Sequence record: PV390659.2
Strand: one strand, 5' to 3'
Origin: Escherichia phage vB_EcoM_P8
Length of the DNA: 64,000 nucleotides
Below, in pieces: positions 9,875 to 10,464 of the stretch. The translations under genes were made by a program, and so were the position numbers. Positions within the stretch are counted from its first letter, which is position 1; each line of letters begins with the position of its first letter. Under the pieces are notes generated by a model, which made no database searches, was not told the origin of the DNA, and was given only the letters and a program-made list of their open reading frames with translations.

Positions 9875-10210
9875 ATGTCTGACATTCACGTAACTGGAAT
9901 TTCACAAGTAAACATTCGCTGCCAATTTAAAACTGTACCTGGGGTGACTCATATTACTTTATCACATGACCCATATTCTCGTGGAACACAGTTAACTGGT
10001 GTAATTAAGTTTTTCGGTGGAATTGGCGGAAACGAATTTACTATAGGCGATGACGAAATTGTTGGTTGTAAATTAAAAGTTCAGAAGGGAGTGTTAGAAC
10101 TTTTTAGTGATGAAGTTTTTGATGAAATCTCACGAGCAGTTAATAAAGGAATGTTAACGTTAATTAAAATGATTAAAGCCAGTGGATATGTTCCCGATCC
10201 TTTATATTAG
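9875..10210 (+). CDS. Hypothetical protein
   Basis: 111-aa ORF, tightly packed after the previous ORF; no recognisable motif. Confidence 0.45.
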   Translation: MSDIHVTGISQVNIRCQFKTVPGVTHITLSHDPYSRGTQLTGVIKFFGGIGGNEFTIGDDEIVGCKLKVQKGVLELFSDEVFDEISRAVNKGMLTLIKMIKASGYVPDPLY

Positions 10211-10218
10211 GAGATAAT

Positions 10219-10464
10219 ATGATTTTTGTATTTGAATTTATGAATGATGAATTCGATTATGCAATTTTTAACGCATTGCATAATCCTGATTTAAATGAAT
10301 TTAATGAAATGTTTTCTGATGCTTTGAGTATGTCAGAAGAATACTGCGGAGAATGTCAACGCGTTTGTGTGACAGTCTTTGAAAACAAAGAAAAGACATA
10401 TGAAGAATTATTCTTTGACGCTAATAAAGCCACTGAATGGTTTATTGAAAGGGGTTTTGCGTAA
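10219..10464 (+). CDS. Hypothetical acidic protein
   Basis: 81-aa ORF with SD GGAG (10209-10212); stop overlaps frd start (ATGA). Confidence 0.45.

Follow-up and report, generated by a model that had tools for sequence, protein, structure and literature searches.

Gene Content between Gene 32 and frd

The window analysed here, a stretch of 64,000 nucleotides of Escherichia phage vB_EcoM_P8 (PV390659.2), contains five small open reading frames (ORFs), all on the plus strand, between gene 32 (7865-8773, plus strand), a 302-aa ORF for the ssDNA-binding protein, and frd (10464-11045, plus strand), a 193-aa ORF annotated as dihydrofolate reductase (DHFR). Positions 8700-10600 match the Tequatrovirus Escherichia phage vB_EcoM_BMB16 (PV102577.1) with 100% identity, and its record carries the same genes from gene 32 to frd, including the last two of the five ORFs, each as a CDS. 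Both boundary genes resemble their T4 counterparts closely, with nucleotide identities of 94% for gene 32 and 93% for frd (blastn). In the deposited record frd (10464-11045) also carries the note "DfrA52", a name styled like those of trimethoprim-resistance genes.

Family, order and identity all assign the first three ORFs as orthologues of T4 frd.3, frd.2 and frd.1. The frd.3 orthologue (8918-9145, plus strand; 75 aa, pI 4.05) matches PF05798 (Phage_FRD3, 9.5e-40) and is 97.8% identical to the T4 gene at the nucleotide level, while frd.2 (9166-9567, plus strand) matches PF03197 (FRD2, 9.3e-39) with 96.6% nucleotide identity. The longest ORF of frd.2 encodes 133 aa, and its likely start is the second ATG at 9181, which has GAGGA 8 nt upstream and yields a product of 128 aa, as in the deposited annotation and in T4. 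The frd.1 orthologue (9622-9864, plus strand; 80 aa) matches PF17438 (DUF5417, the family of T4 Frd.1; 1.7e-33) and shows 95.5% nucleotide and 98.8% amino acid identity to T4 frd.1. The remaining two ORFs, which fill exactly the flagged region 9875-10464, encode a DUF7247 protein of 111 aa (9875-10210, plus strand) and a protein of 81 aa (10219-10464, plus strand).

The initial annotation had counted five small ORFs of 75, 133, 80, 111 and 81 aa in this interval, set them against three genes in T4, and guessed that the 111-aa and 81-aa ORFs were the additional ones. The ORF listing reproduces these coordinates and sizes exactly, the annotation of T4 (NC_000866) has here frd.3, frd.2 and frd.1 only, and the guess was correct, the first three ORFs matching FRD families and T4 having a spacer of 71 nt where the other two would lie. 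One-to-one T4 orthologues were sought for all five ORFs; for the 111-aa and 81-aa ORFs no intact one is found at this position, and only decayed ends are kept within the 71-nt spacer.

Properties of the Two Additional ORFs

The 111-aa ORF scores 148.9 bits (9e-44) against PF23905, whose gathering cut-off is 27 bits, with residues 1-108 aligned on profile positions 1-104 of 106, which makes it a member of the family; it also matches phrog_3566 over its full length (4e-55). The gene, named "RB51ORF237" in the T6 annotation, encodes a near-neutral product (pI 6.3). By tblastn it is matched in 489 phage records, 487 of them covering at least 80% of the query; about 239 show identities at the Tequatrovirus level, whereas 250 come from other genera and stay under 60%. 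A scan of 185,579 bacterial genomes yielded no relatives and one of IMG/VR only two near-identical loci, the reach of both scans being set by their peptide patterns. Two unrelated E. coli phage groups have homologues with 35-46% identity, represented by Phapecoctavirus ukendt (locus L006, 2965-3288) and Suseptimavirus 101114UKE3 (locus L007, 2965-3273), in which the gene is embedded among small early ORFs annotated as hypothetical; this distribution points to a transfer of the gene between phage families. A conserved partner gene 3' of DUF7247 in Phapecoctavirus and Suseptimavirus was considered and discarded, the neighbours of equal size (85 aa) showing no relationship with one another or with the 81-aa ORF.

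Two allele classes of DUF7247 can be distinguished, at ~63-69% amino acid identity, with mosaic intermediates among metagenomic homologues. Comparison of positions 9875-10210 with T6 (locus L009, 1571-1930) and RB68 (locus L004, 2001-2360) reveals the gene as an island of divergence, since identity to T6 falls to 75% at the nucleotide and 63% at the amino acid level between flanks that are 95-98% identical in nucleotides.

The AlphaFold2 model of the DUF7247 product (pLDDT 76, pTM 0.68; only one of the five models confident) displays four beta strands and then, at the C-terminal end, a long helix. It superposes at TM 0.62-0.80 on models made independently for family members in BFVD, and a BFVD search with the model retrieved no entries other than such members. 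Foldseek comparison with the PDB gave no significant neighbour (best E-value 1.0); likenesses to Whirly, Pur-alpha and SAV0927 reached a TM of at most 0.44 and were rejected as insignificant. Neither the sequence nor the fold search found a solved structure of the family in the PDB.

The 81-aa ORF belongs to phrog_3183 (2.3e-43; residues 1-81 on profile positions 1-80 of 80) and matched no Pfam family. Named "RB32ORF231c" in the T2 and T6 annotations, it encodes a strongly acidic protein (pI 4.05, net charge -13) that is identical to that of T2 (100% amino acid identity). It gave tblastn matches in 470 records, 448 of them with at least 80% of its length covered and nearly all of these at 95% amino acid identity or above, and an exhaustive phmmer search against 1.84 billion representatives returned four matches, only one of them distant. 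Directly upstream of frd, Gaprivervirus VR25 carries a homologue of 75 aa with 39% identity. The AlphaFold2 model (pLDDT 53.5) is too poor for interpretation and its Foldseek matches are meaningless. A zinc-binding or CxxC protein was considered, in view of C43-x2-C46, and rejected, as these cysteines are missing in the Gaprivervirus homologues (VR25 gp250, P0032).

Each of the two genes is preceded by a Shine-Dalgarno (SD) sequence in which the stop codon of the upstream gene is embedded (TGAGGA and TAGGAG). The SD of the 111-aa ORF overlaps the frd.1 stop (TGAGGAAAATATTATG, 9862-9877) and that of the 81-aa ORF the stop of the 111-aa ORF (TAGGAGATAATATG, 10208-10221), with spacers of 10 and 8 nt, respectively, before the two ORFs and correct SD spacing in both cases; the 81-aa ORF in turn ends on the start of frd (TAATG, 10462-10466). 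Ratios of dN/dS are 0.10 within and 0.5-0.6 between allele classes of DUF7247, and 0-0.2 for the 81-aa ORF, which differs from T2 by three synonymous and no non-synonymous changes and from T6 by five and two.

The Spacer of T4 Contains the Ends of Both Genes

The place of both additional ORFs is taken in T4 by the 71-nt spacer between frd.1 and frd (NC_000866, 145691-145761). When the window is compared with T4 by blastn, the frd.1 alignment extends to 9931 and resumes at 10444; together with the alignments, this places the segment missing from T4, of ~512 nt, at 9932-10443 (plus strand). What the spacer retains are the equivalents of positions 9875-9931, decayed and with a further gap of 9 nt, and of positions 10444-10464. 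On the 5' side the SD and ATG of DUF7247 are conserved and are followed by the 9-nt gap, ~16 decayed codons (MYVIEIIQVSIRFQLK) and a premature TAG; at the position of this remnant the 119-aa DUF7247 alleles read MSDIHV.GI.RVSIRCQLK. On the 3' side, the end of the spacer (GGATTTACGTAATG) corresponds to the final ~14 nt of the 81-aa gene, whose own end reads GGTTTTGCGTAATG. Breakpoints of the deletion lie near two similar strings, CAATTTAAAA and TTATTGAAAGG.

Identity between the 5' remnant and DUF7247 amounts to ~73-77% over ~44 nt by manual count, less than in the genes on either side, which is what a pseudogene should show. Its homology is argued for by position and by contiguity with the perfectly conserved SD and ATG. 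HY01-type phages align to the T4 spacer through the DUF7247 remnant. The contiguous junction of the T4 type is found in 17 of 497 matching records, comprising T4 strains, T4T, RB55, RB59 and, as the one record outside the T4 lineage, the isolate vB_EcoM_G2133.

Since decayed ends of both ORFs are present in it, the T4 spacer is a deletion scar: it is homologous to both ends of 9875-10464 and differs from them in the ~512 nt that are missing, the 9-nt gap and the premature stop, which make it a pseudogene remnant and not a gene. A deletion of ~0.5 kb removed most of both genes and fused what remained of them into the present 71-nt spacer.

Occupancy of the Slot between frd.1 and frd

T4 has nothing but the scar in this slot, the content of which differs among the T4-like phages compared. 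T2 contains the 81-aa ORF alone, while the window and T6 contain DUF7247 followed by the 81-aa ORF. RB68 shows DUF7247 (119 aa), the first ~30 codons of the 81-aa ORF and an unrelated ORF of 113 aa. In Gaprivervirus VR25 a 113-aa ORF, with a C-terminus resembling that of the RB68 113-aa ORF, precedes the 75-aa homologue of the 81-aa ORF; its interpretation as a divergent DUF7247 was rejected at an hhalign probability of 0.7%. Klebsiella phage Roth51, which is T4-like, has ORFs of 29, 31 and 54 aa, with DUF7247 between the first two, and in Klebsiella T4-like phages DUF7247 is found at the same position as here. The proposal of the initial annotation that this early-gene interval is a plasticity zone is thus upheld, the content of the slot varying across T4, T2, T6, RB68, VR25 and the Klebsiella T4-like phage.

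The genes themselves are those annotated as "RB32ORF231c" and "RB51ORF237", with hypothetical products, in T2, T6, RB32 and RB51, at the same position and, for T6, in identical order, the difference being that the T6 DUF7247 allele has 119 aa instead of 111 and only 63% amino acid identity to that of the window. The 590-bp region with both ORFs is covered to at least 80% in 220 records, and the junction between the two ORFs likewise in 220. Two states are the commonest, namely the five-ORF arrangement and that of T2 with the 81-aa ORF only. Being common and already annotated, the five-ORF arrangement is therefore no peculiarity of the window.

Boundaries between these states fall at the translation signals. 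What is missing from T2 is precisely the DUF7247 cassette; at the T2 junction, TGAAGGAGATGATATG, the frd.1 stop is joined to the SD of the 81-aa ORF. A motif of 15 nt, GAGGAAAATAWTATG, is located exactly at the starts of frd.3 and DUF7247 and occurs four times in the window with at most two mismatches (0.81 expected); the repeat search found SD repeats only. We infer, with good support, an exchange of cassettes through the SD/start repeats, in which whole genes would be gained, lost or replaced with breakpoints in short repeated SD/start sequences (TGAGGA.../TAGGAG...). Crossovers between SD and -10 elements have been shown experimentally for ORFan cassettes of RB49 and phi1 (PMC2839356).

Two other accounts of the additional ORFs have to be weighed against these observations. 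One regards both as artefacts of annotation or as frames open by chance in AT-rich spacer DNA, as might be suggested by the small size of the proteins and, for the 81-aa ORF, by its low pLDDT and its placement outside Pfam. This is barely credible given the SD sites and full-length family matches, the predominance of synonymous substitutions, frames that stay intact in all the records with at least 80% of the query covered, homologues that keep their length at 35-50% identity, and a DUF7247 model that agrees with its BFVD counterparts; moreover, Rfam families were absent from 7700-11300. SD sites, full-length family matches, dN/dS values under 1 and counterparts that occupy the same place in other genera together show that both ORFs are real protein-coding genes under purifying selection. 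The other account takes both ORFs as insertions gained by the lineage of the window phage, with the three-gene arrangement of T4 as the ancestral one. Both gain and loss are possible when cassettes are shuffled in the hyperplastic regions of T4-like phages (PMC2839356), and DUF7247 is clearly mobile among unrelated phage groups. However, an ancestral empty site would not hold the decayed ends of the ORFs, the SD and start of DUF7247 and a premature TAG, the T4-type junction is confined to T4-lineage records, and hundreds of Tequatroviruses have the slot occupied, the same families filling it in Gaprivervirus and in Klebsiella T4-like phages. Such a gain is thus highly improbable, and the comparison of genomes demonstrates that the three-gene state of T4 is the derived one, T4 having lost both genes rather than the phage of the window having gained them.

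Transcription and Translation Signals

An early-promoter-like site (TTTACA-17-TACTAT, TG-extended; consensus match only) is located upstream of frd.1 at 9568-9596 (plus strand), with its sequence conserved in T4, T6 and T2, and another of the same description at 8846-8874 (plus strand). A terminator-like stem-loop followed by a T-run (8796-8814, plus strand; consensus scan and sequence) precedes the latter, and the two together (8796-8874, 3' of gene 32) form a candidate PeSL-like element upstream of frd.3. Matches to the promoter consensus numbered 13, with 15.2 expected from shuffled sequence. Within 9865-10464 no terminator-like hairpin was found, and promoter-like sites were limited to weak 9-of-12 matches, for which shuffled controls gave no lower frequency. 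For both additional ORFs, the candidate promoter closest by is the putative site at 9568-9596.

With neither a promoter nor a terminator of their own, with spacers as short as those described above and with the overlap into frd, both genes are probably co-transcribed early with frd.1 and frd and translationally coupled. Transcription would start at 9568-9596, at 8846-8874 or at both, and run through a unit from frd.1 to frd, and translation of both genes would proceed by coupling, as the TAATG stop/start overlap with frd suggests.

Other Variable Features nearby

Several further differences from T4 and its relatives are observed around the slot. Between the early-promoter-like site and frd.1, T4 (locus L001, 3516-3584, minus strand) and T6 (locus L009, 1180-1317) carry an insert of 84 nt that is missing from T2 and from the window (site 9597-9621). 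It contains a hydrophobic micro-ORF of 22 codons (MFAPYIMAAVMLVCLYLLIKAC) with its own SD, which is unannotated in the T4 RefSeq record, and is flanked by CTAA(T)GGAGAA repeats, a boundary type like that of the T2 junction. The Klebsiella T4-like phage has a hydrophobic micro-ORF as well, its 29-aa ORF between frd.1 and DUF7247.

The alleles of frd.2 (9181-9567) are strongly divergent as well, with amino acid identities of 64% to T2, 43% to RB68, and 98% to T4 and T6. Weak PHROG matches connect frd.2 to a GoF-annotated family, and one phage record describes it as "putative PinA peptidase inhibitor"; a CRISPRi-ART screen reported that, among the fitness genes of T4, frd.2 alone had no known function (PMC11879866). 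Directly 3' of frd.2, small ORFs that match no family are present in RB68 (86 aa; locus L004, 1432-1692) and VR25 (84 aa; locus L010, 1303-1557), and in VR25, furthermore, frd.3 and frd.2 are rearranged relative to each other and gene 32 is followed by an additional ORF with an FRD2 domain.

On the other side of frd, a very basic ORF of 68 aa (11042-11248; pI 10.3, phrog_9550, no Pfam family) separates frd from td. In T4 frd and td overlap with nothing between them, and in T2 and RB68 an unrelated ORF of 115 aa (RB32ORF229c) lies there; the content between frd and td thus differs as well, making it a second plastic slot. The thymidylate synthase gene td (11248-12108) is uninterrupted over its 861 nt, while that of T4 is split by a group I intron encoding I-TevI. 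Upstream, the gene next to gene 32 is gene 59 (helicase loader, 7112-7765), across a gap of 99 nt, while in T4 the homing endonuclease gene segG adjoins gene 32 on its gene 59 side.

Possible Functions of the Two Products

Profile searches of both products in NCBIfam, PADLOC, Pfam and PHROGs returned only families with no assigned function. Matches to Cas8b (13 bits) and N-acetyltransferase (12 bits) profiles were discarded as insignificant, and the defence-system models of PADLOC gave only a 13-bit match. Sequence searches of the PDB, made with a profile for DUF7247 and with the single sequence for the 81-aa ORF, found nothing below E = 0.5. Literature searches for DUF7247, RB32ORF231c, RB51ORF237, phrog_3566 and phrog_3183 retrieved nothing relevant, and papers on T-even accessory genes leave the locus between frd.1 and frd unmentioned.

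Both genes are dispensable in the laboratory, because T4 grows without either. The reading ranked first, though with low confidence, takes both products as dispensable accessory proteins of the cytoplasm that would bind proteins of the host or of competitors, with roles that would lie in host takeover, counter-defence or phage-phage competition rather than in enzymatic activity or the folate pathway. The acidic 81-aa protein could act as a protein-binding inhibitor. More speculatively still, DUF7247 may act in counter-defence, trigger defence or determine host range in some other way, evolving in an arms race, as its island of divergence, its movement between Straboviridae, Phapecoctavirus and Suseptimavirus and its phage-only distribution in the searches might suggest. 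The location of the genes invites a different thought, namely that the 81-aa protein, and perhaps DUF7247 too, is a functional partner or modulator of DHFR or of the dNTP-synthesis complex, in which case its place beside frd and the translational coupling would serve to express both in stoichiometric amounts. Consistent with this, the 81-aa family stands directly upstream of frd with a stop/start overlap in the window, T2, T6 and VR25 (there at 39% identity), it is strongly conserved within Tequatrovirus (dN/dS at or below 0.2), and its neighbours are frd, td and nrdA. On the contrary, frd is normal in T4 and RB68 without the 81-aa gene, stop/start overlaps are common in compact genomes and imply no interaction, the DUF7247 genes of Phapecoctavirus and Suseptimavirus are surrounded by unrelated small ORFs and have no frd in their vicinity, and no similarity to folate or nucleotide-metabolism families was found in Pfam or NCBIfam. 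A link to DHFR is accordingly unlikely, and ranks as a lesser alternative below the reading of both products as accessory proteins.

Taken as a whole, we consider it likely, with a probability of roughly 80%, that the interval consists of frd.3, frd.2 and frd.1 plus two real genes lost by T4, the latter being early accessory cassettes. At this locus the reference phage T4 is a deletion derivative, and the "extra" genes of its relatives are genes that T4 has lost. The phages concerned provide a natural experiment, with T4 lacking both genes, T2 lacking one, and T6 and the phage of the window having both; were the arms-race reading of DUF7247 true, T4 would represent a natural double knock-out and T2 a single one, and the phenotype could easily be tested. 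If either gene truly is a host-range or anti-defence factor, a candidate role at present, it would be useful for choosing therapy phages. Beyond annotation the finding matters little, the variation being ordinary variation in gene content.

Comparison with Known Systems

The genes, their families and the variability of the region were already known from public annotation and from the literature on hyperplastic regions. To this the present analysis makes small additions, namely the explicit deletion scar in T4 and cassette boundaries resolved to the level of the SD, and it ties the two ORFs to names and families, DUF7247 in one case and phrog_3183/RB32ORF231c in the other. As a member of the DUF7247/phrog_3566 family, the product of the window is a full-length match whose predicted fold agrees with the BFVD models of other members, and nothing sets it apart from them.

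The locus differs from the PeSL cassettes in that the additional ORFs are without individual PeSL flanks, the composite promoter/stem-loop flank of a PeSL + ORFan cassette being absent from both and the repeats at their junctions being SD/start sequences only. The other mark of such a cassette, presence or absence of a whole ORF with a crossover 5' of the ATG, is observed for DUF7247 in T2. In its general features the interval resembles the hyperplastic regions described for T4-like phages (Arbiol et al. 2010, PMC2839356; Comeau et al. 2014, PMC4122927), in which, as here, whole small early ORFs are swapped between core genes, with breakpoints in conserved regulatory sequence just 5' of the start codons, and the cluster of the window is likewise headed by a putative terminator and early-promoter element (8796-8874).
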